A stretch of DNA of 64,000 nt, from positions 10,136-74,135 of the forward strand of contig CACGGX010000005.1 in the NCBI GenBank assembly GCA_902572735.1. Direction: 5' to 3'. This DNA comes from an uncultured Alphaproteobacteria bacterium (GTDB lineage Bacteria > Pseudomonadota > Alphaproteobacteria > HIMB59 > GCA-002718135). Below, piece by piece: positions 7,036 to 53,374 of the stretch. The position numbers were made by a program, and so were the translations under genes. Under the pieces are notes generated by a model, which was given only the letters and a program-made list of their open reading frames with translations, was not told the origin of the DNA and did not search any database. The stretch's first letter is position 1. The number at the start of each line of letters is the position of its first letter.

Positions 7036-7099
7036 GTGCTAAGATCACTATAATCTTGATATATTTTAGAACAAATTAAATTTTAAATCTATAAAAAAT

Positions 7100-8877: not shown

Positions 8878-8894
8878 ACTTCAACATTAAAAAA

Positions 8895-8915
8895 AAGGGG
8901 ATATAAAATCCCCTT
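8895..8915 (-). other. Intra-operon stem-loop between the binding-protein and permease genes
   Basis: aaggggat-ataaa-atcccctt, an 8-bp perfect stem in the 56-nt spacer after the binding-protein gene. Confidence 0.55.
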
Positions 8916-8933
8916 AATTTTTATATATAATTA

Positions 8934-10190: not shown

Positions 10191-10292
10191 AATGTTTTCC
10201 TCCTAAATTTGATATTTCAAATATAAAAAAACGGTAATTTCGAAATAAAAAATAATCAAGAAATAATTGTATAAATTTAACAAATTTACTAT

Positions 10293-14276: not shown

Positions 14277-14324
14277 TTTTTATAAACTCAAAAAAAAAAT
14301 GAATAAATAAAAAAGTAAAAAAAA

Positions 14325-17345: not shown

Positions 17346-18127
17346 TTTTTATAATTATGATCTACTTGATATCCTTTTACCTCAATTGGCTCAACTGGTG
17401 TTTTTCTCTCCATATTGTCTATACCCTTAGCAATTCTATCAATCCAAATCCCGGATGTTTTTTCAGGACAAACCCAATGAACAGAATTTTTTATTACCCT
17501 TTGAACATCTTTATTATAATAAACAGGGTATGACTCGTGACCTGGTCTAAAATAAAATATTTTACCATTACCTCTTTTATAACAAAGGCCTGATCTAAAA
17601 ACTTCACCACCTTCAAACCAACTTACAAATACTGTTTCATCTGGTGCTGGAACTTGAAAAGGTTCTCCATACATCTCAGTCATATCAATTTCAAAATATT
17701 CTCCCAAACCCTCGGCAATAGGGTGGCCTGGGTTACAAACCCAAACTCTTTCCTTTTCTCCTCTTTCTGCCCATCTAATGTTTGCAGTTGTACCCATCAT
17801 TCTTTTAAATATTTTTGAATGATGACCAGAGTGAAGTACCAAAAGTCCCATTCCCTCTAAAACTCTTTGTTGTATCCGATCTACAATTTTATCTTCTACA
17901 AGATTATGAGCTTTGTGACCCCACCACATTAAAACATCAGTTTTGTCTAATAGTTCTTCACTTAACCCGTGATCTTTTTCTTCCAAAGTTGCTGTTGAAA
18001 TATTCAAACTTTTATCGTCAGATAAAAAATCTTTAATACAACCATGAATACCTTTTGGATAAATTGATTTTACATGTTCATCTTCTTGCTCGTGTACAAA
18101 TTCATTCCAAATTACTAAATTGAGCAT
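17342..18127 (-). CDS. ThuA-domain protein (trehalose-utilisation-like, class-I amidotransferase-like fold)
   Basis: About 260 aa. Pattern VIWNEFVHE...DVLMWWGH.AH..V...LLVLHSGH.SK is typical of ThuA. Confidence 0.65.
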   Translation of the reverse strand: MLNLVIWNEFVHEQEDEHVKSIYPKGIHGCIKDFLSDDKSLNISTATLEEKDHGLSEELLDKTDVLMWWGHKAHNLVEDKIVDRIQQRVLEGMGLLVLHSGHHSKIFKRMMGTTANIRWAERGEKERVWVCNPGHPIAEGLGEYFEIDMTEMYGEPFQVPAPDETVFVSWFEGGEVFRSGLCYKRGNGKIFYFRPGHESYPVYYNKDVQRVIKNSVHWVCPEKTSGIWIDRIAKGIDNMERKTPVEPIEVKGYQVDHNYKK

Positions 18128-18128
18128 G

Positions 18129-19103
18129 CTACCTTACCCTTCCGCCATGAAATCTATGTCCTAAAATTGCTAATATAATTATTAATCCGTTAAAGAATTG
18201 TCTCCATACTCCGCTCATACCCATAGCCACAACACCAACTTCCATATAAGCTATAACTCCAACTCCAAAAACAGCCCCAACTATAGTTCCAACACCACCC
18301 CAAGTAGGTGTACCTCCAATAAACACTGCAGCCAGAGCAAGTAATAAGTAGCCAAATCCTTGAGTTGGCCACCAAGTAAAATTAATTAAACAAGAAAATA
18401 TTCCTGCAAGCGCCGCACCTAATCCAACATACATAAACGCGCTAATTCTTACCCAGTTAACATTAATTCCCATTTGTGCTGCTGAGTCTGGATTGTCTCC
18501 TACATGATGAATATGAATTCCAAAAACGTGTTTTCTGTAAAGATAATAGGAAAAAATTGTAAACAACGCAGCCCAGTACACTTGCATTGGAACACCGAAA
18601 AGTTTTCCAACTAATACATCGTAGATCCAGTGATCAGAAATTTCCATAAAAGAAATTGATTTACTATCACTAGCTACAAACAAAAAACCTCTTATAAAAA
18701 ATAATGCTCCAAGAGAAGCAACCAAAGATGAAAGGCGTCCGTAAACAACCAAGCATCCCATTAGTATGCCAACTACTGCTCCAGAAAGTATTCCTATAAG
18801 AATACATAATAATGGATCAAGTCCTGCTTTTAATAAAAGAGCAAAAATGTATGCTGACAATCCAAAAGTAGATGCAAAAGACAAGTCTATTTCTCCTGCA
18901 GTAACTAAAAAAACAAGAGGTATAACCATAAACATAATTACTGGAAGCATTACAAAAACAGATTGATGTAAATTTGGTCTCATCATTACTTCTGGAGCTC
19001 CAATTAGGAAAACCAACATTAAAATTATAAAGTAACCTAAGCTTCCTAATGCTCTTCCATTTTTTCCAATTAAATTTTTAAATGTATTTTCTTTGGTACT
19101 CAT
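18129..19103 (-). CDS. CUT2 (ribose-type) sugar ABC transporter permease
   Basis: A 324-aa polytopic protein with RbsC/branched-chain type topology. Confidence 0.85.
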   Translation of the reverse strand: MSTKENTFKNLIGKNGRALGSLGYFIILMLVFLIGAPEVMMRPNLHQSVFVMLPVIMFMVIPLVFLVTAGEIDLSFASTFGLSAYIFALLLKAGLDPLLCILIGILSGAVVGILMGCLVVYGRLSSLVASLGALFFIRGFLFVASDSKSISFMEISDHWIYDVLVGKLFGVPMQVYWAALFTIFSYYLYRKHVFGIHIHHVGDNPDSAAQMGINVNWVRISAFMYVGLGAALAGIFSCLINFTWWPTQGFGYLLLALAAVFIGGTPTWGGVGTIVGAVFGVGVIAYMEVGVVAMGMSGVWRQFFNGLIIILAILGHRFHGGRVR

Positions 19104-19849
19104 TAATGTTTACTCACTGCATCTTTCATAACTTTCATAAGTGCTTCAGGACCCTCAATATCATTTTTATTTAATTGATGAACTACTTCACCTCTGTCTA
19201 AAACAATAAATCTATCAGAAATATCATAGACATGATAAATATTATGACCAATAAATAAAACTGATCTTCCAGATTTTTTAACATTATCTACAAAGTCAAA
19301 AACTTTTTGAGTCTCAATGAGTGAAAGGGCTGTTGTTGGCTCATCCAATACAATTAATTCTGCATTGTTATATATTGCTCTTGCTATTGCTACTCCTTGT
19401 CTTTCACCACCCGATAAATTACCAACAGGTGATTCAGCATCAATTAGTTTTGATGTAAATCCAATTTCTCTAATTAATTTGTTTGCTTCTCTTACTTGTT
19501 CTTTTTCTCTTATAAAACCAAATCTATGTTTTAATTCTTTGCCCATAAAAATATTCCACACTATCGATTGCTGTGGACATAAGGCTCTGTCTTGGAAAAC
19601 AGTTTCTATTCCAGCCTCTCTGGCTTTTGAGGCATTCCAATTTTTAACTTCATTTCCTCTAATTATAATTTGTCCATCATCCGGAGCATGAACACCAACT
19701 AACGTTTTGATTAAGGTGGATTTACCAGCTCCATTATCTCCAATAAGTCCAACAACTTCTCCAACATCAACTTTTATTGATGCTTTTTTTAATGCTGTTA
19801 TTCCGCCAAAACTTTTGGAAACATTTTTAAGTTCTATTATTGCGCTCAT
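19103..19849 (-). CDS. Sugar ABC transporter ATP-binding protein, single-cassette (half-size for CUT2)
   Basis: Walker A GDNGAGKST, signature LSGGERQGVA, Walker B LDEPTTAL. Only one nucleotide-binding domain in 248 aa. Confidence 0.9.
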   Translation of the reverse strand: MSAIIELKNVSKSFGGITALKKASIKVDVGEVVGLIGDNGAGKSTLIKTLVGVHAPDDGQIIIRGNEVKNWNASKAREAGIETVFQDRALCPQQSIVWNIFMGKELKHRFGFIREKEQVREANKLIREIGFTSKLIDAESPVGNLSGGERQGVAIARAIYNNAELIVLDEPTTALSLIETQKVFDFVDNVKKSGRSVLFIGHNIYHVYDISDRFIVLDRGEVVHQLNKNDIEGPEALMKVMKDAVSKH

Positions 19850-19855
19850 ATATGT

Positions 19856-19882
19856 AGCTGATCTACTTACAGTAGATCAGCT
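19856..19882 (-). other. Intra-operon stem-loop after the binding-protein gene
   Basis: agctgatctact-tac-agtagatcagct, a 12-bp perfect stem in the 46-nt spacer. Confidence 0.6.
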
Positions 19883-19895
19883 CTGTTTGATATAT

Positions 19896-20885
19896 TTATC
19901 TTAAACCTGCGTTAGCAAGTTCCATTACTGATTTGTAATTCTCAGTATGTACAAATCCTGCACCAGTATCTTGATTTAATGCTCCAGTTCCAAGAACTTT
20001 CATTTGACATAAAGCAAGTACAGGTAGGTAGCCTTGTAAGAATGGTTGTTGATCAGAAGTTAAATGAACATAACCGTTTTCAAAAGCCGTCATGATTTGT
20101 GGACTAGTATCAAAGCCGATTTGCAATAATTCTCCTGGACCATATCCAGCAGCTTTAGCATATGCTTCAGCATTTCCTAGTTTTTGACCACCATCATGTA
20201 CAATAATTTTTGTATCAGGATTTGCAGCTAGTGCAGCTGAAAATACAGGGATTGCAAGATTTGGATCAGTTGCTTGTTCTGGAGTACCATCTAGAACTAC
20301 AACGTTCATTCCATGTTCTTCAAAAATTATTCTAGCACCATCTTCTCTTTGCGCTCTAGAATAATCTCCAATTGGAACCATTACGATAGCAGTATCACCA
20401 GCTTTAAGATCAAATCTTCTAATTGCTTCTCTTGCTAATTCTTTACCTTGAGTTGCAAGATTTGCACCAACGTATCCACCTCCATAAGCAGCTCTTACTG
20501 CAGGAACATCAACGTTTTGATACATCATTAAGATACCAGCTTCACTAGCCATTTTAGCTAGAGGCATAATTGCATCATCACCAGGGTGACCCATCATACC
20601 AATACCATCAACGCCAGCACCAATTGCTTCTCTTAGTTGTTGAATCATTCTGTCTGATTGCCATTCTGAATAAAGAATTTCTGCATCAGCACCAGTATCT
20701 CTGATAGCATTTTCTGCACCAGTTTGAACTATTCCTGCGAAACCATCGCCTTCAGCTCCACCAGCAAAGAAGTGAATTCTTACATCACTACACCATCCAT
20801 CACCTAAGTTTTTATCAATAGCATAAACTGAACCACTGAAAGAAAAAACGAAGAGTGTTGATAATAAAATTTTTAATATTTTCAT
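19896..20885 (-). CDS. Periplasmic sugar-binding protein (CUT2 / Peripla_BP_4 type)
   Basis: Signal peptide MKILKILLSTLFVFSFSGSVYA. About 330 aa, LacI/RbsB-fold-like. Confidence 0.8.
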   Translation of the reverse strand: MKILKILLSTLFVFSFSGSVYAIDKNLGDGWCSDVRIHFFAGGAEGDGFAGIVQTGAENAIRDTGADAEILYSEWQSDRMIQQLREAIGAGVDGIGMMGHPGDDAIMPLAKMASEAGILMMYQNVDVPAVRAAYGGGYVGANLATQGKELAREAIRRFDLKAGDTAIVMVPIGDYSRAQREDGARIIFEEHGMNVVVLDGTPEQATDPNLAIPVFSAALAANPDTKIIVHDGGQKLGNAEAYAKAAGYGPGELLQIGFDTSPQIMTAFENGYVHLTSDQQPFLQGYLPVLALCQMKVLGTGALNQDTGAGFVHTENYKSVMELANAGLR

Positions 20886-41912: not shown

Positions 41913-42701
41913 TTAATACGCGCTAGTATTATCAGATTTAGTATCTACATCTTTCAATTCTTTTAATAAACTTTCAGCATGTGATGTCATCATTCTAAAA
42001 TCAGAAAGTAAAGTGGTAAATTGGAAACCATAATCCATCATTTCTTTCATATACTTAACTGATCCATTATGGATACCGGCAATCTTTCCTTTTTCTTTAG
42101 CTTTTTTTGCAATCATTTTAATATTTGAAAATACTGGATCTTCACGAACATCAAATTTAGGCGGTAAGCCATATGAAGAACTCATATCTGCAGGCCCAAT
42201 ATAAATACCAGTCAAATTTGGAACTGAAAGAATGGTATCTAGGTTCTCCACTGCTTGTTTCGTTTCGATCATTGCTAAACTTACAATATTATCATTTGCG
42301 TGTTGATAGTAATCTGAACCATAAACTACTTGCGCTCTCATTGGACCAAAGCTTCTTTGACCTATTGGAGGATAATAACAATATGAAACAAACTTTTCAC
42401 AGTCCTCTTTAGTATTAATCATTGGTGCAATAATTCCTTGAATACCTAAATCTAACATTTTCATAATTATACCTGGCTCGTTCCATGGAACTCTTGTCAT
42501 AGGTACAGTATCACTATTTGTTAATCCTTGGATCATCGCAATTGAACTTGAATAATCATTCTGGCCATGCTGCATATCGATAGTTACTGAATCCCAACCC
42601 ATTTTACCAAAGGCTTCAGCAGTAAAAGAATTCGGTATGGACAACCATGCATTTATTGAAGCTTTGTTTTGCTTCCAAATATCAAATAATTTATTTTTCA
42701 T
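41913..42701 (-). CDS. HpcH/HpaI-family 2-keto-3-deoxy-acid aldolase
   Basis: W.SIPNSFTAEAFGKMGWDSVTIDMQHG...RVPWNEP...ETK.A..N.D.I pattern. Confidence 0.8.
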   Translation of the reverse strand: MKNKLFDIWKQNKASINAWLSIPNSFTAEAFGKMGWDSVTIDMQHGQNDYSSSIAMIQGLTNSDTVPMTRVPWNEPGIIMKMLDLGIQGIIAPMINTKEDCEKFVSYCYYPPIGQRSFGPMRAQVVYGSDYYQHANDNIVSLAMIETKQAVENLDTILSVPNLTGIYIGPADMSSSYGLPPKFDVREDPVFSNIKMIAKKAKEKGKIAGIHNGSVKYMKEMMDYGFQFTTLLSDFRMMTSHAESLLKELKDVDTKSDNTSAY

Positions 42702-42779
42702 AATTACAGTTGAAATTTGTTCATATATTAAAATCTATATTTATTATACTTAAATAATATTTATTTTATAAAACTAAAT

Positions 42780-42893
42780 ATGAAAAAATTTTTAATATGG
42801 ACTCTGATTATAATATTTTTCATCTTAGTTTTTTATTTTTCCTTCAACTATTTTATAGGATTAATACGAGACCAAATGATTTTTTTGCTATAA
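42780..42893 (+). CDS. Possible 37-aa single-TM peptide
   Basis: ATG ORF MKKFLIWTLIIIFFILVFYFSFNYFIGLIRDQMIFLL in the aldolase-gntR spacer. No other support. Confidence 0.2.
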   Translation: MKKFLIWTLIIIFFILVFYFSFNYFIGLIRDQMIFLL

Positions 42894-42957
42894 TAAAATA
42901 TCACAATCCATATTATTTCTACTTACATTTCAGAAAAATTCCTTTGAACTGAATTCA

Positions 42958-42973
42958 ACTTATTATAATAAGT
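42958..42973. promoter_or_regulatory. Candidate GntR/HutC operator O1: perfect 16-bp palindrome ACTTATTATAATAAGT
   Basis: Self-complementary by hand check. Ends 7 nt before the gntR-family ATG. An identical copy lies at 43670..43685. Confidence 0.6.
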
Positions 42974-42980
42974 AGTTAGA

Positions 42981-43670
42981 ATGACAAATATCCCAAAATA
43001 TAAAAAAATATATGACCAAATAGTAAAATTAATTCTTACTAACGAATGGCCTGTTGGCTCTAACATGAAGTCAGAAAGTGAATTAATCAAAACATTTGGT
43101 GTTAGTAGATTAACAATTAGAAATGTACTTAATATTTTAGAAAACGAAGGCAGAATTAAAAGAAGTAGAGGTAGAGCAACAGTAATATTAGATAAGCTTT
43201 TAAAAAATCCATTTAATTCTGAAATAAAAGATTTTTCAGTCACACTTAATGCTGACTATAAACTTTTGGATGTTCAAGTTATAAAAAATAATTTCACAAA
43301 AAAATTTAAAAATTCTTCCTCACTTTATTATATTAAGAGATTAAGAAGACTTAAAAATAATGAAGTATATTTAATTAGCAGAGCCTATATTCCAATTGAA
43401 ATAGTTGGTAAGAATGTAGATAAAAAAATATTTAAAGATAAAAATCTACTAGATGTTTTAATGAATGATTTTAAAATCAATATAAAAAAGAGTAATCAGG
43501 AAGTTTCTGCAGTTAATTTAAGTAAAAACGACTCAGGTTTATTCAATACTGCAAAAGGATATCCAGCAATTTCAAATACATGGAATCTTTATGATATTTC
43601 CAATAGATTAGTATTAATTGATCAAGAGTTTACAGTTAGGCCAATAAAAGTAGAGAATTTATATCAATAA
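42981..43670 (+). CDS. GntR-family transcriptional regulator, HutC subfamily (wHTH + UTRA effector domain)
   Basis: Y..I...I......W..GS.MKSESELIKTFGVSRLTIRNVLNILENEGRI.R..G, followed by an ~150-aa UTRA-like domain. Confidence 0.85.
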   Translation: MTNIPKYKKIYDQIVKLILTNEWPVGSNMKSESELIKTFGVSRLTIRNVLNILENEGRIKRSRGRATVILDKLLKNPFNSEIKDFSVTLNADYKLLDVQVIKNNFTKKFKNSSSLYYIKRLRRLKNNEVYLISRAYIPIEIVGKNVDKKIFKDKNLLDVLMNDFKINIKKSNQEVSAVNLSKNDSGLFNTAKGYPAISNTWNLYDISNRLVLIDQEFTVRPIKVENLYQ

Positions 43671-43686
43671 CTTATTATAATAAGTT
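43669..43686. promoter_or_regulatory. Candidate GntR/HutC operator O2: the same palindrome extended to 18 bp (AACTTATTATAATAAGTT)
   Basis: Overlaps the regulator's stop codon and lies 59 nt upstream of the binding-protein ATG. Confidence 0.6.
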
Positions 43687-43744
43687 GATTAACTTTCTTG
43701 AAATTATTATAAATAATTATTTTATATATTTATATTAAGGAGGA

Positions 43745-45073
43745 ATGATGAATAAAATTTTAAACATATTCTTATCTTTTGTTCTTACTGCATTTTTTGC
43801 AACTTCAACGTTTGCTGCTACAAAAGTAGTCTGGTGGATGGAAAGTGACGCAACAACTGACCCAGTAGTACAAGAATTATTTGTTGACGCATTTAATGCT
43901 GAACATGATGATATTGAATTAGAAGTTGTTTTTAAAGAAGATATCAACGATACAATTAGACCAGCTCTTCTTTCTGGAAGTGGTCCTGATATTTTTGATA
44001 CACCTGGTGCATCTTACATAAAAATTTATCAAGATGCTGGACTCGTGAAATCATTGCAAGAGTATGCTGATCAATATGGTTGGCAAGATAAACTTTTAGA
44101 ATGGGCTTACAATTCAGGTGTGTTTAGTGGTGAACTATACTCAATTCCAAAAAACTATGAAACAATGATTTATTTTTATAATAAAACTTTGTTCGAAGAA
44201 AACGGATGGAGTCTTCCTAATAATTTAGAAGAGCTTGAAGCATTAGCTGCAAAAATAAAAGCTAAGGGCATGAACCCTTATGCGTACGGATCTACTGGTT
44301 GGCAGCCAACACATGAGCACTTAGTAGGTAACTATTTTAACACTTATGCTGGACCAGATAATGTTTACAAAGCATTGATTGGTGAAAAAAAATGGACTGA
44401 TCCAGAATTTGTAGAGTCAATTGAACTTTTAAGAAAACACATGGTCGATGATGGTTATTGGTCTGGTGGTTTAGAGACATATTACTCTCTAGGTTGGGAT
44501 GACTTCAATGGTGAATTTGTTAACAGAGAATCAGCAATGTTAATGATCGGAACTTGGGGCTTCAATGTAACTGCTACAAACTTTGCTGAAAGTTCTGATG
44601 ATTGGGATTGGGCTGCTTTGCCTATACTTCATCCTCAAGCAGGAGATAGACCAAATTATCAACTTGCAACAGGTGGAACAATGTCAGTAAATGCTGCATC
44701 TAAAAATCCTGAAGCTGCTGCAAAGGTTATTGATTGGATTCTATCAGATAGAGCAAGAGTTCTTAGTGTAACTGGTCAATTAGGCTACGGCGCATGGTTG
44801 ATGCCACTACATTATGAAGACAGTGACTTTGATCCAAATATTGATCCAAGACAAAAAAGATTCTTAACTGAATTTGCTGAAGCTACAGGATCTGGAAATT
44901 ATGGTTACACGACATGGACTTTCTATCCTAATGATCCAGGTGTTCACATTTGGAAAGATATGGAAGTTGTTTGGGCAGGAGATATTACTCCGCTTGAGTT
45001 CATGGAAGAATCACAAAGACTATGGGACAAAGCACGTGAAGACGATGCATTAGTTCCAGTTGGAAAAAGATAA
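43745..45073 (+). CDS. Periplasmic sugar-binding protein, ABC family 1 (CUT1)
   Basis: Strong RBS aaggagga and signal peptide ...AFFATSTFAATK. A 442-aa W/Y-rich family-1 binding-protein pattern. Confidence 0.85.
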   Translation: MMNKILNIFLSFVLTAFFATSTFAATKVVWWMESDATTDPVVQELFVDAFNAEHDDIELEVVFKEDINDTIRPALLSGSGPDIFDTPGASYIKIYQDAGLVKSLQEYADQYGWQDKLLEWAYNSGVFSGELYSIPKNYETMIYFYNKTLFEENGWSLPNNLEELEALAAKIKAKGMNPYAYGSTGWQPTHEHLVGNYFNTYAGPDNVYKALIGEKKWTDPEFVESIELLRKHMVDDGYWSGGLETYYSLGWDDFNGEFVNRESAMLMIGTWGFNVTATNFAESSDDWDWAALPILHPQAGDRPNYQLATGGTMSVNAASKNPEAAAKVIDWILSDRARVLSVTGQLGYGAWLMPLHYEDSDFDPNIDPRQKRFLTEFAEATGSGNYGYTTWTFYPNDPGVHIWKDMEVVWAGDITPLEFMEESQRLWDKAREDDALVPVGKR

Positions 45074-45088
45074 TTCCAATTTATTTTC

Positions 45089-45115
45089 AATAAGGGGAAT
45101 TTTATTCCCCTTATT
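45089..45115 (+). other. Intra-operon stem-loop after the binding-protein gene
   Basis: aataaggggaat-ttt-attccccttatt, a 12-bp perfect stem 16 nt after the stop codon. Confidence 0.6.
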
Positions 45116-45132
45116 TTAAAAATATAAAAAAT

Positions 45133-46011
45133 ATGCCAAAGTTTTTGACTAATATAAATGCGATTTCATGGTATTTTTTAATGCCAGTATTGTTCATACA
45201 TTTCTTTGTTATAGCTTTTCCATCTATACTTAGCTTACTCTTATGCTTAACTGATTGGAATGGTTTTGGAAAAATAAACTATGTAGGTTTAGAAAATTTT
45301 GAAGAATTATTTAGGGATAGAATTTTCAAAAAGGCTGTCTATCACAATTTCATATGGACAATAATGTTTTTAACTATTCCAGTAATTGTCGCTTTAATCA
45401 TAGCTTATCTCTTAACTGGAATTAAAAGAGGGCAACTTTTTTACAGACTCGTTTATTTTTTCCCTTATATTTTAGCAAGTATAGTTAATTGTTTAATTTG
45501 GAGATATATCTTTCATCCAAAACATGGATTGGGCGGATGGTTTGAAAACCAAGGAATTGATTTTCTCTCAAAGTCACCTTTTGCTATGAAAGAGACAGCG
45601 TTATACGCCGTTGCCTGGGTTGACATGTGGCACTTCTGGGGTTTCTTAGTTATCATTTATTTAACTGGAATGTATCAAGTAGATGAATCTCTTTATGAGG
45701 CTGCAGATATTGAAGGAGCAACGAAATTTCAAAAATTTAGATACATAACTATACCAATGATAAGACCAATTTTTATATTATCTTTAATCATTATAATTAT
45801 TTGGTCTGTTCCAACATTTGATTATGTTTACATTTTAACAATGGGAGGCCCAGCATATAGCTCAGAAGTTGTAGCTAATCATCTATACTCTCAAGCGTTT
45901 CAGCGAATGAATGTTGGTTATGCATCTACTATAGGTGTGATGATGTTCTTCTATGTCGGTATAATAGTTGGCTTTTTTGCACTTTTAAGGCGTTTGGGTT
46001 GGGAGGTATAA
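45133..46011 (+). CDS. CUT1 sugar ABC transporter permease (MalF/UgpA-like)
   Basis: EAA loop ESLYEAADIEGATKFQKFRYITIP. Six TM segments. Confidence 0.9.
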   Translation: MPKFLTNINAISWYFLMPVLFIHFFVIAFPSILSLLLCLTDWNGFGKINYVGLENFEELFRDRIFKKAVYHNFIWTIMFLTIPVIVALIIAYLLTGIKRGQLFYRLVYFFPYILASIVNCLIWRYIFHPKHGLGGWFENQGIDFLSKSPFAMKETALYAVAWVDMWHFWGFLVIIYLTGMYQVDESLYEAADIEGATKFQKFRYITIPMIRPIFILSLIIIIIWSVPTFDYVYILTMGGPAYSSEVVANHLYSQAFQRMNVGYASTIGVMMFFYVGIIVGFFALLRRLGWEV

Positions 46012-46020
46012 AAATCACAA

Positions 46021-46863
46021 ATGGCGACTGCAAGATTTAGACAAAGATCTAGTTATATAAACCATTCTATTTTATTTTTTATGGCCTTAACTATTATATT
46101 GCCATTACTAGTTTTAATTTTTAACTCTATAAAACCTGTTGAGGAATTTGGTACTAATCCTTTAGGTTTCCCAACTGAAATAAGATTGATGAATTACTAT
46201 GATGCTTGGGTAAATGGAAACTATACTCAAATATTTTTTAACTCAATGACTCTTGTTGTGGGAACGTTAATTTTAAATTTAACAGTTTCCGGACTTGCTG
46301 CATTTAGTTTAGCCGCTTTAAATCCTAGAGGCATTCAAACAGTTGTTGTTGGTTTATATCTATTAGTTGGAATTAGTATACCCGCACAATTATATATTTT
46401 ACCATTATTTCTTATGTGGAAAAGCTTGTATCTTCTGGACACAAGGATTGGGTTAATTATTATTTATAGTGCCTTAAATGCACCCTTTGCAACTTTTTTA
46501 ATTCGATCCTATATGCTTCAATTACCAACTGAACTTTTTGAAGCTGCGAAACTAGATGGAGCTTCAACAATGCAATTATTTACGCGAGTAGCGTTACCAT
46601 TATCTTGGCCTGTATTTTTAACTACAGCTTTAATTGTATCATTAAATGTTTGGAACGAATTTTTATTTGCAATCACATTTATCATAACGGATGATTACAA
46701 ACCTATTTCGTCTATATTATTTGCTTTCCAAAGTAGATTTGCAAATGATTATGGGTTGGTAAGCGCAGCTTCAATTTTAATGGCTGCACCAATTGCTATT
46801 TTATTTATGTTTTTCCAAAGAAGGTTTATTGCTGGTTTAACGAGTGGAGCAACTAAAGGTTAA
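46021..46863 (+). CDS. CUT1 sugar ABC transporter permease (MalG/UgpE-like)
   Basis: EAA loop ELFEAAKLDGASTMQLFTRVALP. Six TM segments. Confidence 0.9.
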   Translation: MATARFRQRSSYINHSILFFMALTIILPLLVLIFNSIKPVEEFGTNPLGFPTEIRLMNYYDAWVNGNYTQIFFNSMTLVVGTLILNLTVSGLAAFSLAALNPRGIQTVVVGLYLLVGISIPAQLYILPLFLMWKSLYLLDTRIGLIIIYSALNAPFATFLIRSYMLQLPTELFEAAKLDGASTMQLFTRVALPLSWPVFLTTALIVSLNVWNEFLFAITFIITDDYKPISSILFAFQSRFANDYGLVSAASILMAAPIAILFMFFQRRFIAGLTSGATKG

Positions 46864-46885
46864 TATTTAAAACGGGAGTAATTAA

Positions 46886-49048
46886 ATGGACCTAAATAAG
46901 ACTTTTGAAGATAAAGTATACGCAGGTGTATTAGGAAAAATCATTGGCGTTTACTTAGGCCGTCCTTTTGAAGGTTGGTATTACGACCGAATAATGAAAG
47001 AACTTGGTCCAATTAATTATTATGTAAATGATAAATTAGATTTTCCCATTCATGTAACAGATGATGATTTAACAGGAACATTTAGATTTATTAATGCTTT
47101 GAAGCATTTTAATTTTGATAAAAATATTACCGCAAAACAAATTGGTCAAACCTGGTTAAATTATTGTTTGGAAAATCAGACTGTGCTTGCATGGGCTGGA
47201 AAAGGTATCTTAACTGAAGAAAGTGCTTTCATGAATTTGAAACAAGGTATTCATGCTCCTGAAAGTGGTTCTATTAAAATGAATGGAAAAGTAATTGCTG
47301 AGCAAATAGGTGCTCAAATATTTATTGATGGATGGGGAATGGTCTCGCCAGGAGATCCCGAGCAAGCAGTTGAATTAGCAAAAAAAGCTGGCAGTGTAAG
47401 TCATGATGGTGAATCTGTTTACGGTGCTCAAGTGGTAGCTGCAATGGAAGCATATTCTTTTATTGAAAATGATATTAAAAAAATAATTGAAAACAGTAAA
47501 AAGTTTGTTCCTTCTGACTCGACAATTTACAAACTTATTTCTGATATTCAAGATTGGAGTTCAGGTAATTTAGACTGGGAGCAAGCAAGAACTAAAATTG
47601 AAGATAAATATGGTTATGCAAAATTTCCAGGTAATTGTCATATCGTTCCTAATCATGCTTTAATTATTCTCGCACTACTTTTTGGTGATGATAATTTTCA
47701 AAAATCTTTAATGATTGTAAATACTGCTGGCTGGGATACTGATTGTAACTCGGGTAATGTTGGATGTATTTTAGGAATCAAAAATGGCCTAGAAGGTATT
47801 AAAGATGGTCCAGACTATATTACGCCTGTTAACGATATAATATATTTACCTACCGCATATGGCTCGGAAACAATGACCGATGCCTTAATAGAAAGTCAGA
47901 ATATTATTAATATTACGAGAAGAATGAATGGGCTAGAAAGTAAGTCTATAAAAAATAACGCAAGATATAATTTTGAGATGGAAACATCGACACAAGGTTG
48001 GATGGTAGATAAATCAAATGATAATAATTTAAACACTAAAATTTCAAATGTTGATTATAAATCTAATATTGGACAGAGAGCTCTAGAGATAAATTTTACT
48101 GACTTATCTTTTGGTTTATCAAGTGAAATTTATGTAGAAAGTTTTTTTCCTGAATGGTTTACAAGGTTAGAAGGTTATCAATTCCAAAGATACTTTCATT
48201 ATGATTATGTAGCTTGCCCAACCGTATATAGTGGACAAAAAATTAAGACAGAATTGATCTCAGATACTGATAAAGATTTAAAAATTAATTTATTTATCAA
48301 ATATTGGGGTGCCGATGATAAGCTCATTAAAGTATCATCTGATGATTTTAATATTAAGAATAAAGAAAGTAAAATTATAGAATGGATTGTACCTGATACT
48401 TTATCAAATCCAATTGGCCAGATTGGTATTAGTATTAACTCAGATAATAATAATAATGGCAAAATTCTAATGAATTATTTAGATATTTCTGGAACACCTA
48501 AAATGACATTCAAAAGACCTGATCACATAGATGAATATACAAGAGGTATTTTTTATAAAGAACAGCCTTACGGTCAATTATGGAAAAGGGCTTGGGTGAA
48601 TGATGTAGATAAATGGCAGTTTAGATGGCAAGAAGCTTTTAAAATTGTAAGAGGTATTGGAAGGGGCCACATTATGACTGGAAGTGAGATATGGAAAGAT
48701 TATACAATCTCATCAAAGATATCCATTCCACTGGCATCTGCTGCTGGTCTGATACTAAGATCTCAAGGTTTAAAAAGATATTATTCTCTTGAGCTCACTT
48801 CTGACAAAAAGTTAAAAATAAATAAAATGGAGTATGAATTAAAAACTCTAAAAGAAATAGATTTTGATTTAGAATTTTTTAAAGATTACAATTTAAAATT
48901 CAAAGTTAAAGGCAATCATTTACAAGGTTTTGTCGATGATAAATTAATGATTGAGGTTGAAGATAATGAAAATTCATTTGAACAAGGGATGATTGGTTTC
49001 ATAACTGAAAATGGAGCTATTCAGAGTGAATCAATTTCAATAGAATAA
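46886..49048 (+). CDS. ADP-ribosylglycohydrolase (ARH)-fold protein fused to CBM-like and ConA/LamG-like domains (paralog A)
   Basis: The N-terminal ~340 aa carry GVLGKIIGVYLGRPFE, VTDDDLTGT and NTAGWDTDCNSGNVGCILG (the ARH di-metal motifs). The C-terminal ~380 aa are beta-rich. No signal peptide. Confidence 0.75.
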   Translation: MDLNKTFEDKVYAGVLGKIIGVYLGRPFEGWYYDRIMKELGPINYYVNDKLDFPIHVTDDDLTGTFRFINALKHFNFDKNITAKQIGQTWLNYCLENQTVLAWAGKGILTEESAFMNLKQGIHAPESGSIKMNGKVIAEQIGAQIFIDGWGMVSPGDPEQAVELAKKAGSVSHDGESVYGAQVVAAMEAYSFIENDIKKIIENSKKFVPSDSTIYKLISDIQDWSSGNLDWEQARTKIEDKYGYAKFPGNCHIVPNHALIILALLFGDDNFQKSLMIVNTAGWDTDCNSGNVGCILGIKNGLEGIKDGPDYITPVNDIIYLPTAYGSETMTDALIESQNIINITRRMNGLESKSIKNNARYNFEMETSTQGWMVDKSNDNNLNTKISNVDYKSNIGQRALEINFTDLSFGLSSEIYVESFFPEWFTRLEGYQFQRYFHYDYVACPTVYSGQKIKTELISDTDKDLKINLFIKYWGADDKLIKVSSDDFNIKNKESKIIEWIVPDTLSNPIGQIGISINSDNNNNGKILMNYLDISGTPKMTFKRPDHIDEYTRGIFYKEQPYGQLWKRAWVNDVDKWQFRWQEAFKIVRGIGRGHIMTGSEIWKDYTISSKISIPLASAAGLILRSQGLKRYYSLELTSDKKLKINKMEYELKTLKEIDFDLEFFKDYNLKFKVKGNHLQGFVDDKLMIEVEDNENSFEQGMIGFITENGAIQSESISIE

Positions 49049-49073
49049 ATTTTAATTTAAAAAAGGATGGGTT

Positions 49074-51233
49074 ATGAAACTAGATAAGACTTATGAAGAA
49101 AAAGTATACGCTGGAGTGCTCGGTAAATTAATTGGTGTGTATTTAGGCCGTCCTTTTGAGCAGTGGTCACATGAAAGGATTATGGAAGAGCTAGGTGAAA
49201 TTAATTACTATGTTAATGAGCAATTAAATGTCCCATTAGTTGTAACAGACGATGATATAACTGGAACATTTACATTTCTCCGTGCTCTAAGAGAAAATAA
49301 TTATGACCCTAATATAAGTCCAAAACAAATTGGTCAGTCTTGGCTTAATAATTTAATTGAGAACAAAACAGTTTTATGGTGGGGAGGAAGAGGTCATTCA
49401 GCTGAAGATACTGCATATCAAAATTTAAAAGCTGGAATAGAAGCTCCTATGAGTGGATCAATAGAAACAAATGGTAAAGTAGTTGCGGAACAAATAGGTG
49501 CGCAAATATTTATTGACGGTTGGGCTTTAGTCACTCCTGGTGATCCAGAAAAAGCAGCAGATCTTGCAAGAAGAGCAGGAAGTGTCAGTCATGACGGGGA
49601 AGCAATCTATGGTGCTCAGATGGTTGCAGCTATGGAGTCACTAGCATTTGTTGAGACTGATATTAACAAAATTATTGATGAGTCAAAAAAATATATCCCA
49701 AATAGTTCTCTTATTTATAAACTGATTGGTGAACTTCAAAATATGAGAGCTGGGAATAATGATTGGATGCAGGCAAGAGAGTTTCAAGCTGAAACATATG
49801 GATATGACAAATATCTTGGTGGATGTCATATGATACCTAACCATGCAATAATTATACTGTCACTATTATTTGGTGATGATGATCTTCAAAAAACTCTTAT
49901 GATAGTAAATACCGCTGGTCATGACACTGATTGTAATTCTGGTAACGTTGGTTGCATTATGGGCATTAAAAATGGTCTTGAAGGCTTAATGAATGGTCCA
50001 GATTATTTAACACCTATACAAGATAGAATGTATTGTCCGACTGCTAACGGAGGTGAAACACAAACTGATGCCTTAACAGAAGCTTATAAGGTTATTAATA
50101 CTGCTAAAAAAATGAATAAAGAAGAAACTGTTGAGCCTAAAAATGGTTCAAGATTTCATTTTGAAATGCCTGGTTCTGTTCAAGGTTGGAGATCAAGTTT
50201 TAAAAATAACAAAAATATTTCAACTATTGTCCAAAATACTGAGTATGAGAGTAGTATAGGAAAAAGAGCATTAGAAATTAAATTTGACAGAGTCGCGCCT
50301 GGTGTTTGTTCTGAGGCTGTTGTTGATACTTTTTTTCCTCAGGAATTGTATGAGTTAACAGGGTCTGCAAGAGAAAGATTTTTTCAAAGTTATAACTTTA
50401 TTTCCTGTCCACTTTTATATTCAGGACAAAATATAGAAAGTGAAATCATTTTTAAGTCGAATTCTCAAAAACCAATTACGGTTACATGTTTTATCAATGT
50501 TTTTGGAGAAGAGGATAATTATGAAAGAATAAATTCTGAAAGTGTTGTGCTTTTTCCTGATAAATCACAAAAACTTAAATGGAAAATTCCTTCAACAGAA
50601 GGCAATCCTATTACACAAGTTGGTTTTTCTATAGAATCAGATGAAGCAAATTCTGGAAGTTTAATTTTAAATTATTTAACTTTCACTGGTGAGCCAAATT
50701 GTAAATTTTCTAAACCTAACCATATTGGAAAACATAAAAGGGGTGTTAAATTTTCAAATGCTAAAATGTGGAAAGCTAGTTGGGTCGATGCTCTAGATAA
50801 ATGGGATAGTGGAGAGAGAACTTTTAGAGTCTGTAAAGATAGTGGTAGAGGAATGTTAATTACAGGAACTGATTTATGGAAAAACTATAAAGTTACTTCC
50901 GATATTGCAATTCAGCGAGTAAAAACAGGCGGTCTTGCTGTGAGAGTGCAAGGATTAAATAGATATTATGGTTTAGTGATTAGTGCATCAAATAAACTTC
51001 AATTAATAAAAGTAATTAATGAGCCAAAAGTGTTAAAAGAAATAGATTTTGATCTTGAATATTATAAAGATTACAAATTATCTCTTAAAGTCGAGGATAA
51101 TAAATTGTCTGGTTATCTTGATAACAAAGTTGTTTTAGAGTTCACTGATAATTCTGATGTGCTTGAAAATGGAGCTATGGGATTAATTGTTGAAGATGGA
51201 ACTATGGTGACTGATGAAGTCATTGTAGAATAA
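49074..51233 (+). CDS. ADP-ribosylglycohydrolase (ARH)-fold protein fused to CBM-like and ConA/LamG-like domains (paralog B)
   Basis: Collinear with paralog A: 46 of the first 64 residues are identical by hand count. Same motifs: VTDDDITGT and NTAGHDTDCNSGNVGCIMG. Confidence 0.75.
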   Translation: MKLDKTYEEKVYAGVLGKLIGVYLGRPFEQWSHERIMEELGEINYYVNEQLNVPLVVTDDDITGTFTFLRALRENNYDPNISPKQIGQSWLNNLIENKTVLWWGGRGHSAEDTAYQNLKAGIEAPMSGSIETNGKVVAEQIGAQIFIDGWALVTPGDPEKAADLARRAGSVSHDGEAIYGAQMVAAMESLAFVETDINKIIDESKKYIPNSSLIYKLIGELQNMRAGNNDWMQAREFQAETYGYDKYLGGCHMIPNHAIIILSLLFGDDDLQKTLMIVNTAGHDTDCNSGNVGCIMGIKNGLEGLMNGPDYLTPIQDRMYCPTANGGETQTDALTEAYKVINTAKKMNKEETVEPKNGSRFHFEMPGSVQGWRSSFKNNKNISTIVQNTEYESSIGKRALEIKFDRVAPGVCSEAVVDTFFPQELYELTGSARERFFQSYNFISCPLLYSGQNIESEIIFKSNSQKPITVTCFINVFGEEDNYERINSESVVLFPDKSQKLKWKIPSTEGNPITQVGFSIESDEANSGSLILNYLTFTGEPNCKFSKPNHIGKHKRGVKFSNAKMWKASWVDALDKWDSGERTFRVCKDSGRGMLITGTDLWKNYKVTSDIAIQRVKTGGLAVRVQGLNRYYGLVISASNKLQLIKVINEPKVLKEIDFDLEYYKDYKLSLKVEDNKLSGYLDNKVVLEFTDNSDVLENGAMGLIVEDGTMVTDEVIVE

Positions 51234-51236
51234 GTT

Positions 51237-52220
51237 ATGAAATATAGAAAATTTGGCTCACTGGATTGGAATGTTTCCGAAGTTGGTTTAGGTTGTTGGC
51301 AAATAGGAGCTGATTGGGGGAATGTAACTGAAGACAGTGCTCAAGAAATTTTAAAATCATCGTATGAAAATGGTGTAAACTTCTTCGATACAGCTGATGT
51401 CTACGGAATGGGTAGAAGTGAAAAATTTGTAGGCGATTTCCTTAAATCAGTATCTGATAGAATTTATGTAGCAACAAAAGCAGGAAGACAAATAAATCCC
51501 CATGTTGCTGAGGGATACTATGATAAAGCTTTAATGGAGTCTTACGTAGATCAATCTTTATTAAACCTTAATGTGGAAACGATTGATCTTTTACAAATGC
51601 ATTGTCCTCCAACAGAAGTGTATTCATCTAACAACACATTTGAAATGTTAGATTATTTAGTGAGTAAAGGTAAAATTCAAAATTATGGTTTTAGTGTTCA
51701 AACAGTTGACGAGGCTCTTGAATGCATCAAACGACCAAATACAAAATCTATTCAGGTTATTTTCAATATTTTCAGACAAAAACCTGCTGAAAAATTATTT
51801 AAAATTGCAAAAGAAAAAAAAGTTGCAATTATTGTTAGAGTACCCCTTGCAAGTGGATTATTAACTGGAAAGTTTAATAAAGATTCATCATTTGCTCCTG
51901 ATGATCATCGTAATTACAATATTAATGGAGATGCGTTTGATGTAGGTGAAACATTTTCAGGCGTAAATTTTAATAAGGCATTAGAAGCTGTTGATGAATT
52001 AAAAAATATATTACCAGAAGGTATTACGTTATCACAGTTATCACTTAAATGGATTCTAATGCATGATGCTGTTAGTATTGTCATTCCTGGTGCTAAAAAT
52101 AAAGATCATGTAGGTCTGAATACTTCTTCTTCAGAATTAGATACTATTTCTTCTTTAATGAATGAAATAAATAGTGTTTACACAAAATATTTTTTTGATG
52201 ATGTTCATCATCGTTGGTAA
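51237..52220 (+). CDS. Aldo/keto reductase
   Basis: GLGCWQIG..WG, FFDTADVYG (catalytic Asp/Tyr region), LLQMHCP, and the C-terminal VIPGAKN. Confidence 0.9.
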   Translation: MKYRKFGSLDWNVSEVGLGCWQIGADWGNVTEDSAQEILKSSYENGVNFFDTADVYGMGRSEKFVGDFLKSVSDRIYVATKAGRQINPHVAEGYYDKALMESYVDQSLLNLNVETIDLLQMHCPPTEVYSSNNTFEMLDYLVSKGKIQNYGFSVQTVDEALECIKRPNTKSIQVIFNIFRQKPAEKLFKIAKEKKVAIIVRVPLASGLLTGKFNKDSSFAPDDHRNYNINGDAFDVGETFSGVNFNKALEAVDELKNILPEGITLSQLSLKWILMHDAVSIVIPGAKNKDHVGLNTSSSELDTISSLMNEINSVYTKYFFDDVHHRW

Positions 52221-53374
52221 AAATATTTGTGTCAGAGGAAATTAAAATATTTAGAAGGGCAACGCTTGCTTCAGTAATCACTTCAACTTATCCCATGATA
52301 GTTGTTGGCTGTTATTTTGGTGTTACGCCTTGGATTTTTAATAGATTATCCATAGATGAATCTGATTTCAGTTTTGCGATACTGCTTTTTGGTATCTTCT
52401 TTATTATCTCTAATCAGATAGCAGGTCGTATACTTGTACCAAAGTATGGAACAAAATTAATTATGTCTCTAGCTTTTCCATTGGTTACCTTTTCTACCTT
52501 TTTAGCTATTATTTCTTCTTCATATTTTTATTTTTTATTAACATTTATACCAGCTGGAATTGGATGGGGAGCATCTGGACCAATAGGAGGAATACATAGT
52601 CAATTAATTGAAAAACATTTTAAAAAAATTATTACACCTTACTATGCTATGGGTTTCAATTTAGGTATTTTAGTTGGCGGTTCATTAGCAGGTATAATTA
52701 TGAGAAATAATTATGAGCCTTATTTATTTTTTGGAATTTTATCTTTTCTATCACTATTTGTTTCTATTTTTGTATATTTGTTCGGATTACCTCGAAATTT
52801 AGATTTTAGAGGTGAAGGAGAAAAATTCAAAATTCCAGAGACTAATGTTCTTTTATTTGGATTTTTATTATTTTTTGTGTTCGGTTCAGGTGGAATAATT
52901 ATGGATTGGTCAACATTATGGTTATCAAAAGATTTAAATGCTCCTCTTTACTTAGCTAGTATGGGATTAATATTTTTCAGTATTGGAGGTATTTTTGCTA
53001 ATCTATTTTCAAATTCTTTGATTAAATTATTTACAGAAAAAGTTGTTGGTTGCCATTTTGTAATGATTGGAGCATCAATAATGTTTTTATCCTTATTAAC
53101 TAATAATTTTTATATTATTCTTGCAGTTCTAAGTCTTTATGGATTTGCCATAGCTAATTTAGTTCCAATTGTGATTAGACAAGCAGTCAAACAGTCCTCA
53201 GAGAGTATTCCTATGACAGTTACCAATCTTATTACAATTGGATTATCCTCAACAATGATTATGCCAGCAGCAATTGGCTTTTTAGCTGAAACCTTTTCGC
53301 TTACTTTAAATATGTATTTATTGTGTATTATAGTCTTTACTTCTGGGGTTGTTTTTTTACTAAAGTTTAAATAA
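52214..53374 (+). CDS. MFS-type transporter (12 TM); start uncertain (TTG at 52214 or GTG at 52229)
   Basis: About 12 hydrophobic segments in two halves separated by a charged loop (PRNLDFRGEGEKFK). Confidence 0.7.
   Translation: MVKIFVSEEIKIFRRATLASVITSTYPMIVVGCYFGVTPWIFNRLSIDESDFSFAILLFGIFFIISNQIAGRILVPKYGTKLIMSLAFPLVTFSTFLAIISSSYFYFLLTFIPAGIGWGASGPIGGIHSQLIEKHFKKIITPYYAMGFNLGILVGGSLAGIIMRNNYEPYLFFGILSFLSLFVSIFVYLFGLPRNLDFRGEGEKFKIPETNVLLFGFLLFFVFGSGGIIMDWSTLWLSKDLNAPLYLASMGLIFFSIGGIFANLFSNSLIKLFTEKVVGCHFVMIGASIMFLSLLTNNFYIILAVLSLYGFAIANLVPIVIRQAVKQSSESIPMTVTNLITIGLSSTMIMPAAIGFLAETFSLTLNMYLLCIIVFTSGVVFLLKFK

Follow-up and report, generated by a model that had tools for sequence, protein, structure and literature searches.

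The DNA analysed here, hereafter the window, is a 64-kb stretch with a G+C content of 27-35% that was treated as part of a SAR11-type genome; the single-cell genomes matching it are labelled uncultured Alphaproteobacteria, and a more distant relative of the locus discussed below (L015) carries the label Pelagibacteraceae. As described in an earlier note on this DNA, the window contains a run of genes encoding, in this order, a GntR/UTRA regulator, a solute-binding protein (SBP), two permeases of an ATP-binding cassette (ABC) transporter, two long proteins with an ADP-ribosylglycohydrolase (ARH) domain (ARH-A and ARH-B), and an aldo-keto reductase (AKR). The two long ARHs represent a fixed, undescribed three-domain architecture built on the ARH fold that likely serves nutrient catabolism and is tandemly amplified in SAR11. 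In agreement with the earlier note, neither a characterized ortholog nor a paper on this three-part architecture was found in the open-access literature searched, which also yielded no "ribofuranosidase" and no SAR11 ARH beyond a gene list from 2007. The two genes and the domains of the first are:

46886..49048, + strand: ARH-A, 720 aa, PF03747 at 3e-49
Residues 1-345 (nt 46886-47920), + strand: catalytic ARH domain of ARH-A, assigned by PF03747 and the structure model
Residues ~346-560 (nt 47921-48565), + strand: β-sandwich of ARH-A resembling carbohydrate-binding module (CBM) family 22, assigned by Foldseek
Residues ~561-720 (nt 48566-49045), + strand: CBM66-like jelly roll of ARH-A, assigned by Foldseek
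49074..51233, + strand: ARH-B, 719 aa, the same three domains, PF03747 at 8.7e-50

The coordinates, common direction, and 25-nt spacing of the two genes had been given exactly, and their collinear paralogy was borne out by a full-length BLASTP alignment with 369 identities in 723 positions (51%), 73% positives, and E = 0; the 46 identities counted by hand over the first 64 residues were likewise exact. Identity by domain is 65% in the catalytic, 38% in the middle, and 40% in the C-terminal domain. Independent single-cell genomes and metagenome contigs (L001-L004, L011, L081, L094, and L137) contain both genes in intact form, with 97-100% conservation, so that they can be regarded as real genes. 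In a neighbour-joining tree, the SAR11 copies form one clade with lineage-specific duplications, in which the B type is the earliest branch and three of the copies in the four-copy loci are of the A type; ARH-B represents the paralog type nearest to the homologs outside SAR11. No NCBIfam model matches ARH-A or ARH-B, and none of the DraG or Tri1 type was found for the 720-aa proteins. Neither protein has a signal peptide, the N-terminus being acidic and the ARH domain beginning at residue 14, unlike the SBP with its clear signal sequence, which agrees with the cytoplasmic location proposed earlier.

The three-part architecture was upheld by Pfam, an AlphaFold2 model of ARH-A, and Foldseek. The Pfam scan suggested in the earlier note placed PF03747 (cut-off 26.2 bits) at the N-terminus of both proteins, covering nearly the whole 287-position family model (positions 2-286) in ARH-A (residues 14-307, 168.7 bits) and ARH-B (residues 14-305, 170.4 bits). 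The structure model, computed from a 28-sequence alignment (pLDDT 75.9, pTM 0.78), has helices over residues 1-347 and β-rich blocks at residues ~360-545 and ~585-720. Compared with the PDB, the N-terminal block matched 1T5J (MJ1187), 6G1P (ARH3), and 3G9D (DraG) with target-normalised template modelling (TM) scores of 0.63-0.65. The middle block has no Pfam match and resembles CBM22 by fold only (4XUP_C, TM 0.65, root-mean-square deviation (rmsd) 4.2 Å, 9% identity). For the C-terminal block, CBM66 of the Bacillus subtilis levanase SacC (4AZZ, 4B1L, and 4B1M) was the best structural match to residues ~585-720 at 21-23% identity (4AZZ_A: TM 0.75, rmsd 1.8 Å, 144 columns, 23% identity); the lowest E-value was obtained for the lectin domain of galactocerebrosidase (3ZR5, 9e-09), and by sequence the match to CBM66 is weak (phmmer E 0.017-0.022).

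The earlier note had likened this C-terminal domain to DUF1080, the 3-keto-disaccharide hydrolase family (PF06439), a candidate that we rejected: ARH-A reaches 15.3 bits against a cut-off of 26.8 bits, ARH-B has no match, and nothing points to a 3-keto-glycoside pathway attached to the ARH cassette. In ARH-B, PF21708, the C-terminal lectin domain of glycoside hydrolase family 59 (GH59), passes its cut-off of 27 bits (30.5 bits, residues 587-700), as it does in the homologs P0079, P0117, and P0120, whereas ARH-A stays below. The concanavalin-like jelly-roll superfold is common to PF06439, PF21708, and the ARH C-terminus, and on the basis of the structure model the domain appears to be better described as CBM66-like or GH59-lectin-like. 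A search with residues 345-720 against 1.84 billion representative sequences returned 806 clusters. Matches of ~700 aa align at ~345-705, and the eight short matches inspected (369-577 aa) are fragments or one internally deleted copy of the ARH architecture, so that an occurrence of the middle and C-terminal module in other architectures was rejected; the β-domains are therefore taken as family-specific, and the three-domain protein as one evolutionary unit.

The catalytic motifs of ARHs are retained, as had been claimed. When the catalytic domain of the long ARHs was compared, profile to profile (hhalign), with canonical ARHs of the short type (six proteins, from related loci plus Escherichia coli YegU), a probability of 99.8% was reached (E 8e-28, 297 aligned columns). 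The alignment placed E29 on the canonical Glu, T58/D60/D61 on T-D-D, and D284/D286/C287 on D-x-D-S, and the aligned E, T-D-D, and D-x-D positions are the sole invariant acidic or Thr columns of the canonical set. We take them to correspond to E41, T76-D77-D78, and D314/D316/T317 of ARH3. Among 27 sequences from seven phyla, E29, T58-D59-D60-D61, and D284-T285-D286-C287 are invariant in all 27. Overall, 100 of 345 positions are invariant in the catalytic domain (29%), compared to 16 of 215 in the middle and 10 of 160 in the C-terminal domain (6-7% in the β-domains), and because invariance is concentrated in this way, the long ARHs can be viewed as active enzymes with faster-evolving accessory domains. 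Five of the six motifs quoted in the earlier note match both proteins as written, namely VTDDD[LI]TGT (residues 57-65), NTAG[WH]DTDCNSGNVGCI[LM]G (279-297), [RY][YF][NH]FEM..S.QGW (360-372), G.RALEI.F (396-404), and LKEIDFDLE... (655-686 in ARH-A, 654-685 in ARH-B). The sixth, W[KD].Y...S.I......GL..., is present with a true spacer two residues longer than quoted.

In comparison with ARH3, ARH1, and DraG, the long ARHs share the all-helical fold (TM 0.63-0.65 to 6G1P and 3G9D) and keep the Glu-flap glutamate, T-D-D, and D-x-D-(S/T/C). They differ in being twice as long, with two added C-terminal β-sandwich domains, in the last predicted metal-ligand position, where Cys287 replaces Thr/Ser as the third residue of the second motif, and in their gene context, which consists of sugar-import operons with kinases instead of transferases or nitrogenase regulators. 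The closest solved structure is MJ1187 of Methanocaldococcus jannaschii (1T5J; E 0.036 with a single sequence, Foldseek TM 0.64), in which the GxPxE and GxDTD(S/C) motifs align; it is a single-domain protein of 313 aa without CBM-like modules or a known substrate. When a profile of 18 catalytic domains was searched against the PDB at E <= 10, with the aim of aligning it to ARH3 or DraG, MJ1187 alone was recovered (E 5e-4). By fold and motifs the long ARHs belong to the ARH superfamily, and nothing places them among the functional ADP-ribosylhydrolases. All characterized ARHs need a binuclear metal centre, and their substrate is positioned by the two metals together with the distal ribose's cis 2''/3''-hydroxyls (PMC7050489). 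The long ARHs likely share the chemistry of these enzymes, in which two metals serve to hydrolyse the bond at the anomeric carbon of a furanose with a cis-diol (PMC7050489).

The family is large and widely distributed. More than 7,000 proteins in a collection of 5.8 billion sequences match it at E <= 1e-5, several marine clusters at 90% identity have 400-500 members each, and the three-domain architecture occurs in at least seven phyla. For the analysis of gene context, one genome per species was scanned and the best 80 of at least 566 stretches encoding a relative were retained; all context counts outside SAR11 refer to the 52 non-SAR11 loci of this set. The hosts of the 80 loci include Chloroflexota, Deinococcota (Trueperaceae), Planctomycetota, Bacillota, Nitrospirales, other Alphaproteobacteria, Abditibacteriaceae, and Chthonomonadaceae, the last two both belonging to the Armatimonadota in current taxonomy. 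The non-SAR11 relatives are 42-51% identical over the full length.

Conservation of the link to the importer had been set beforehand as a point on which the earlier proposal could fail. The proposal held on this point: in 26 of the 52 loci, ARH has a co-directional, orthologous SBP-permease-permease block (SBP 33-59%, permeases 36-69% identity) directly upstream, in Chloroflexota, Deinococcota, Armatimonadota, Bacillota, and other Alphaproteobacteria. A LacI regulator is encoded in 17-19 loci, depending on the count, with best NCBIfam matches to RbsR and CytR that remain below the cut-off. PfkB sugar kinases are adjacent in 11 loci, usually as the next gene downstream, and the cut-off of the NCBIfam ribokinase equivalog (299.65 bits) is passed in L043 (344.6 bits), L050 (373.2 bits), and L053 (356.3 bits). 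Nucleoside hydrolases of the IUNH family are adjacent in three loci (L045, L053, and L070). A second, distant PF03747 gene is found next to the long ARH in nine loci (L030, L038, L043, L047, L049, L054, L056, L057, and L061), encoding proteins of ~370-440 aa or of ~580 aa with an uncharacterized C-terminal extension; multi-ARH operons are thus common outside SAR11 as well. Several of these elements are united in L053, where the gene order is LacI-nucleoside hydrolase-SBP-permease-permease-ARH-ribokinase-AKR-Zn-dehydrogenase. Since no classical glycoside-hydrolase family recurs in the non-SAR11 neighbourhoods, the ARH protein appears to be the hydrolase of the operon. One neighbourhood also contains a 439-aa open reading frame (ORF) without Pfam or NCBIfam match (L034, 8606..9925).

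In the window, the two ARH genes are surrounded by the following features:

41913..42701, - strand: HpcH/HpaI-family aldolase, PF03328 at 6e-27; divergent, at the left flank of the insertion site
42981..43670, + strand: GntR-family regulator with UTRA domain, PF00392 at 3.4e-13 and PF07702 at 3.3e-11
43745..45073, + strand: SBP, SBP_bac_1 family, MalE/UgpB-type, PF01547 at 2.6e-31; signal peptide with hydrophobic N-terminus
45094..45109, + strand: GC-rich, terminator-like hairpin GGGGAATTTTATTCCC with T-rich tail, from a consensus scan; in the 59-nt gap after the SBP gene
45133..46011, + strand: ABC permease 1, PF00528; orthologs of 41-69% identity in the same position outside SAR11
46021..46863, + strand: ABC permease 2, PF00528 at 1.4e-18; orthologs of 36-69% identity directly upstream of ARH
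51237..52220, + strand: AKR, PF00248 at 4.1e-59; 3 nt after ARH-B
52214..53374, + strand: major facilitator superfamily (MFS) transporter, PF07690 at 6.7e-21; overlaps the AKR stop by 7 nt
5929..7035, - strand: MalK/UgpC-type ABC ATPase, NF008653 (UgpC subfamily) 463.6 bits versus a cut-off of 432

The SAR11 loci that extend to both sides share one arrangement, in which a minus-strand HpcH gene is followed by GntR (present in some), SBP, permease, permease, a variable number of ARH genes, AKR, MFS, and a CN-hydrolase. The earlier note had treated the two ARHs as a pair; this does not hold as the unit, as SAR11 relatives carry one, two, or four ARH copies at the same site. The orthologous SBP and permeases lie upstream of ARH in all sufficiently long SAR11 loci except L135, which reads HpcH-ARH-AKR and has no transporter. 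A scan of metagenome contigs for the AKR gene recovered ~20 SAR11-type contigs with an ARH gene ahead of it. One contig represents the empty site (L150, CEUM01001504.1, 1..1122): HpcH and AKR are divergent and 158 nt apart, with no cassette between them. In another (L142), a 58-aa remnant resembling the ARH C-terminus is found upstream of AKR. These site variants indicate that the importer-ARH block is a flexible cassette between backbone genes, and AKR-MFS-CN-hydrolase looks like the chromosomal backbone. One of the contigs conserving the ARH genes (L004, NYXO01000061.1), 6.7 kb long and with 98-99% identical ARH-A, ARH-B, and AKR, was deposited in a metagenome-assembled genome of a "Methanobacteriota archaeon" and is almost certainly a mis-binned SAR11 contig. 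The G+C content over the cassette (window 44001..52000) is 0.316-0.346 versus 0.27-0.28 in the flanks, which could reflect either strong constraint at the protein level or a foreign origin.

Variability is also found within the cassette. In the window, the GntR/UTRA regulator occupies the HpcH-SBP spacer (42701..43745). A homolog is present in L015 (76% identity), whereas L001 and L002, with 99-100% identical ARH genes, lack it and have ~300 nt between HpcH and the SBP gene. For the SBP-permease block, two types of allele exist, one with 88-94% and one with 97-100% identity to the window, and their distribution is independent of the ARH copy number. As the presence of the regulator varies and the allelic types assort independently, frequent recombination inside the cassette is suggested. 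Where present, the GntR/UTRA protein is likely the local repressor of the cassette.

According to the earlier note, the reductase would act on the carbonyl product released by the hydrolases. With a gap of only 3 nt, AKR is probably co-transcribed with ARH-B, but its role in the cassette is not established, as AKR also adjoins HpcH at the cassette-free site of L150; outside SAR11, AKR is found downstream of ARH in L053 only. For the same reason, a non-phosphorylative sugar-acid route with the AKR as aldose dehydrogenase and the HpcH protein as aldolase was rejected. In addition, no lactonase or sugar-acid dehydratase was found among those ORFs of the window that were scanned. The MFS transporter is kept downstream at every ARH copy number in the SAR11 loci, and its membership in the ARH system is doubtful.

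The SBP remains below every NCBIfam equivalog cut-off, the best match being NgcE with 83 bits against 399. Its closest solved relatives are binders of xylo- and chito-oligosaccharides (4G68, 1.3e-21; 3VXB; 7EHP), pointing to a ligand as large as a di- or oligosaccharide. Its assignment to the SAR11 glucose binder SAR11_0769 (8HQQ) was rejected, with E 5.7e-6 over a partial stretch. The hairpin downstream of the SBP gene (45094..45109) may attenuate transcription and thereby raise the amount of binding protein over that of the permeases; terminator-like sites number 12 in the region, compared to 5.4 ± 2.5 in shuffled sequences. A promoter scan of the operon was uninformative in this AT-rich DNA (79 sites versus 76.7 expected). 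The ARH operon itself contains no ATPase gene. The only candidate in the window, the MalK/UgpC-type ATPase at 5929..7035, is 46% identical to an ATPase encoded near the ARH operon of L039, and it is plausible that it is shared with the ATPase-less ARH cassette.

This ATPase gene lies in a second carbohydrate ABC operon on the minus strand (5929..15323), which might represent a sulfated-sugar or oxidative glycoside route and contains, in addition:

7100-8877, - strand: two ORFs in permease position
8934-10190, - strand: SBP_bac_1 binding protein
10293-11597, - strand: sulfatase-like protein
11594..13093, - strand: 499-aa ORF without Pfam or NCBIfam match, inside this sulfatase/oxidoreductase sugar operon
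13068-14276, - strand: Gfo/Idh/MocA oxidoreductase
14325-15323, - strand: fatty-acid-desaturase-family protein

The minus strand also encodes, at 16275..20885, a third transporter for sugars, this one of the monosaccharide type, in a gene set that resembles 3-keto-sugar (ThuAB-type) catabolism:

16275-17345, - strand: levoglucosan-dehydrogenase-like Gfo/Idh/MocA enzyme
17342-18127, - strand: ThuA
18129-19103, - strand: BPD_transp_2 permease
19103-19849, - strand: ORF with ABC-ATPase similarity, from tblastn
19896-20885, - strand: Peripla_BP_4 binding protein

The window thus holds three sugar importers within 64 kb of a streamlined genome.

We propose that ARH-A and ARH-B are cytoplasmic, divalent-metal-dependent glycosidases that serve nutrient catabolism, and not the removal of ADP-ribose from proteins, by releasing D-ribose from an imported glycoside or riboside. 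The general claim, a catabolic glycosidase coupled to this importer, is made with considerable confidence, whereas for ribose as the product the chances appear evenly balanced, and the full proposal stands at that same even level. The SBP (43745..45073) would capture a glycoside of di- or oligosaccharide size in the periplasm, and the two permeases would import it, presumably via a shared MalK-type ATPase such as that at 5929..7035. In the cytoplasm, the two-metal centre (E29; T58-D61; D284/D286/C287) would bind a cis-diol sugar. D-ribofuranose is the most probable candidate because the characterized members of the fold act on ribose C1'' and the only metabolic neighbours identified with confidence are ribokinases and nucleoside hydrolases. 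ADP-ribosylglycohydrolase genes have, moreover, been reported from ribose-utilization loci of Bacteroidetes (bioRxiv 10.1101/574913). Cleavage of the glycosidic bond at C1 would then yield free ribose and an aglycone or second sugar, and outside SAR11 the ribokinase of the operon would phosphorylate the released ribose. The two C-terminal β-sandwich domains may shape or gate how the remainder of the substrate, apart from ribose, is recognized. This would account for the arrays of paralogs and for the second ARH gene found so often, and the one, two, or four SAR11 paralogs could cover different linkages or aglycones of one class of imported compounds. In this scheme, the architecture, the conserved motifs, the link to the importer across phyla, and the kinase and nucleoside-hydrolase neighbours are observed, and we infer which sugar is released, the specificity for the anomer and for O- or N-linkage, what the β-domains do, which ATPase takes part, and whatever the AKR contributes. 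Of the ribosyl- or glycosyl-hydrolase pair envisaged in the earlier note, the ribosyl half is independently backed by the ribokinase, PfkB, and nucleoside-hydrolase neighbours, while the pair is not the unit and the role of the reductase is not established.

The nucleoside hydrolases provide a functional analogue for such an enzyme. IUNH proteins (PF01156) hydrolyse ribosides with the assistance of a metal that chelates the 2',3'-diol of ribose. In contrast to the long ARHs, beside which they are encoded in three loci, they have an unrelated fold with a single Ca2+ site and are specific for β-N-ribosides. More tentatively, the ARH-CBM22-like-CBM66-like proteins may found a true glycoside-hydrolase family that cleaves phosphate-free ribofuranosides or other cis-diol glycosides imported as carbon, a possibility that we rate somewhat short of even.

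Several observations weigh against the release of ribose by the long ARHs. The analysis drew its best 80 loci from over 566 candidates, and the neighbour counts are hence no unbiased census; half of the non-SAR11 loci have no informative neighbours. The model of ARH-A is of low confidence at residues 48-60, which form the T-D-D loop, and at residues 93-147 (pLDDT <50 over 93-147). The SBP resembles oligosaccharide binders and not the known binders of nucleosides or ribose. The ribokinase cut-off is passed in only three of the 52 loci, the other PfkB kinases being unassigned and one of them fructoselysine-kinase-like. No ribokinase was found among the scanned ORFs of the window, nor within ±10 kb of any SAR11 locus. 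Finally, the family is remote from the solved ARHs, the nearest being MJ1187 at E 5e-4, and sugar specificity is therefore not transferable from them.

Some of these observations also favour the main rival explanation, in which the long ARHs have the same cytoplasmic glycosidase role and release a sugar other than ribose. Their two-metal site would then bind a different furanose or cis-diol sugar, for example fructofuranose, arabinofuranose, apiose, a mannose- or rhamnose-type sugar with a 2,3-cis-diol, or an Amadori-type ketosamine. Eight of the 11 adjacent PfkB kinases fall below the ribokinase cut-off, one of them being nearest to fructoselysine 6-kinase (152 bits), and the lack of a ribokinase at the SAR11 loci and the great distance of the family from the ribose-specific ARHs point in the same direction. 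Oxidoreductases (AKR, Gfo/Idh/MocA, and Zn-dependent alcohol dehydrogenase) are encoded near some loci. In addition, the C-terminal domain is nearest to CBM66, a binder of terminal fructose (4AZZ). CBM66 is part of a secreted GH32 fructanase and binds the terminal fructose of levan, whereas the module of the long ARHs is cytoplasmic and fused to an ARH domain. However, ribokinases are the only kinases among the neighbours that can be assigned confidently, three loci also contain nucleoside hydrolases, RbsR and CytR give the best scores for the LacI regulators, and the characterized members of the fold all act at ribose C1'' (PMC7050489). Release of another sugar is thus considered an unlikely but serious alternative to the release of ribose.

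The remaining explanations, namely salvage, de-ADP-ribosylation, and a non-catalytic role, are in that order progressively less likely. Salvage of ADP-ribose conjugates by classical ARH chemistry could involve small molecules carrying ADP-ribose, O-acyl-ADP-ribose, poly(ADP-ribose)-type linkages between riboses, or isomers of cyclic ADP-ribose. It would account for the PF03747 membership with intact catalytic motifs and for the nucleoside hydrolase and ribokinase neighbours, and there are precedents for a comparable gene content. Bacteroides thetaiotaomicron grows on ADP-ribose in a rus-dependent manner; its own rus locus has a gene for a nucleoside hydrolase and none for an ARH, and in the rus loci of other Bacteroidetes, ADP-ribosylglycohydrolases are listed, uncharacterized, among the variable enzymes (bioRxiv 10.1101/574913). 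In these polysaccharide utilization loci, ribokinase genes occur together with a varying set of enzymes that release ribose, ARHs and nucleoside hydrolases among them, and L053 has the same trio. They differ in importing across the outer membrane via SusC/D and in having a regulator that is ribose-inducible.

In organisation, the nearest analogue of the long-ARH loci is yegT-yegU-yegV of E. coli with YegW/GgaR, which joins a nucleoside-type transporter, an ARH, a PfkB kinase, and a GntR-family repressor; GgaR was reported to sense ADP-glucose (PMC10819704). As in the window cassette, the regulator belongs to the GntR family (GntR/UTRA in the window), and YegU aligns in the profile comparison. 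On the other hand, YegT is an MFS nucleoside-type symporter and not an ABC transporter, and YegU has 334 aa and no β-domains, with pairwise similarity at the motif level (E 0.001). Against salvage, the importer of the long ARHs belongs to the oligosaccharide/UgpB type, neutral oligosaccharides being the ligands of its nearest solved relatives; genes for a phosphatase, a Nudix protein, or a pyrophosphatase do not recur in the neighbourhoods; residues that bind adenine or diphosphate could not be demonstrated to be conserved; ARH1, ARH3, and DraG are very remote from the family; and two CBM-like domains together with two to four diverged paralogs are hard to reconcile with a single nucleotide ligand. 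Overall, salvage of ADP-ribose conjugates is therefore improbable.

A regulatory function as DraG- or Tri1-type de-ADP-ribosylases, with the proximity to the transporter being incidental or regulatory, would be the canonical function of the Pfam family and is compatible with the intact motifs. It is nevertheless very improbable, given that no ADP-ribosyltransferase was noticed among the scanned ORFs of the window or the recurrent neighbour families of the 52 loci, PADLOC found no defence match, NCBIfam gave no DraG or Tri1 match for the 720-aa proteins, and the linkage to one orthologous ABC importer across phyla, the CBM-like domains, and the copy number of one to four in a streamlined genome all speak against it. 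An anti-phage or ADP-ribosylation conflict system was rejected on the same lack of PADLOC matches and transferase neighbours. Least probable of all is a catalytically inert binder or sensor of the imported sugar in the cytoplasm, similar to crystallin J1 or ADPRHL1: inactive ARH-fold members exist (PMC7050489) and lectin-like domains could bind a ligand, but the predicted metal and catalytic residues are all invariant across seven phyla, and the catalytic domain is the most conserved part (29% invariant versus 6-7% in the β-domains), the opposite of a degenerate site.

In SAR11, streamlining of the genome is extreme and carbohydrate-active enzymes are few. Even so, some SAR11 lineages devote 4.3 to 8.7 kb to two to four ARH copies behind a dedicated high-affinity importer, and identifying the substrate would define a new carbon route from dissolved organic matter into these organisms. 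To our knowledge, the ARH fold is known almost only from the reversal of ADP-ribosylation; if the proposed function is true, this two-metal fold was taken over for a glycosidase of nutrient catabolism that carries CBM-like domains as accessories. Because the family extends over at least seven phyla and the generic Pfam domain is its only curated model, a single characterization would annotate thousands of genes, and it might also inform on orphan systems such as yegTUV of E. coli and the ARHs of Bacteroidetes ribose utilization. If the long ARHs do found a glycoside-hydrolase family of their own, SAR11 and many soil and hot-spring bacteria would import phosphate-free ribofuranosides or other cis-diol glycosides as a carbon source, and the arrays of one, two, and four copies would mark a class of dissolved organic matter, structurally diverse and so far unrecognized, on which SAR11 as the most abundant heterotroph of the ocean draws.

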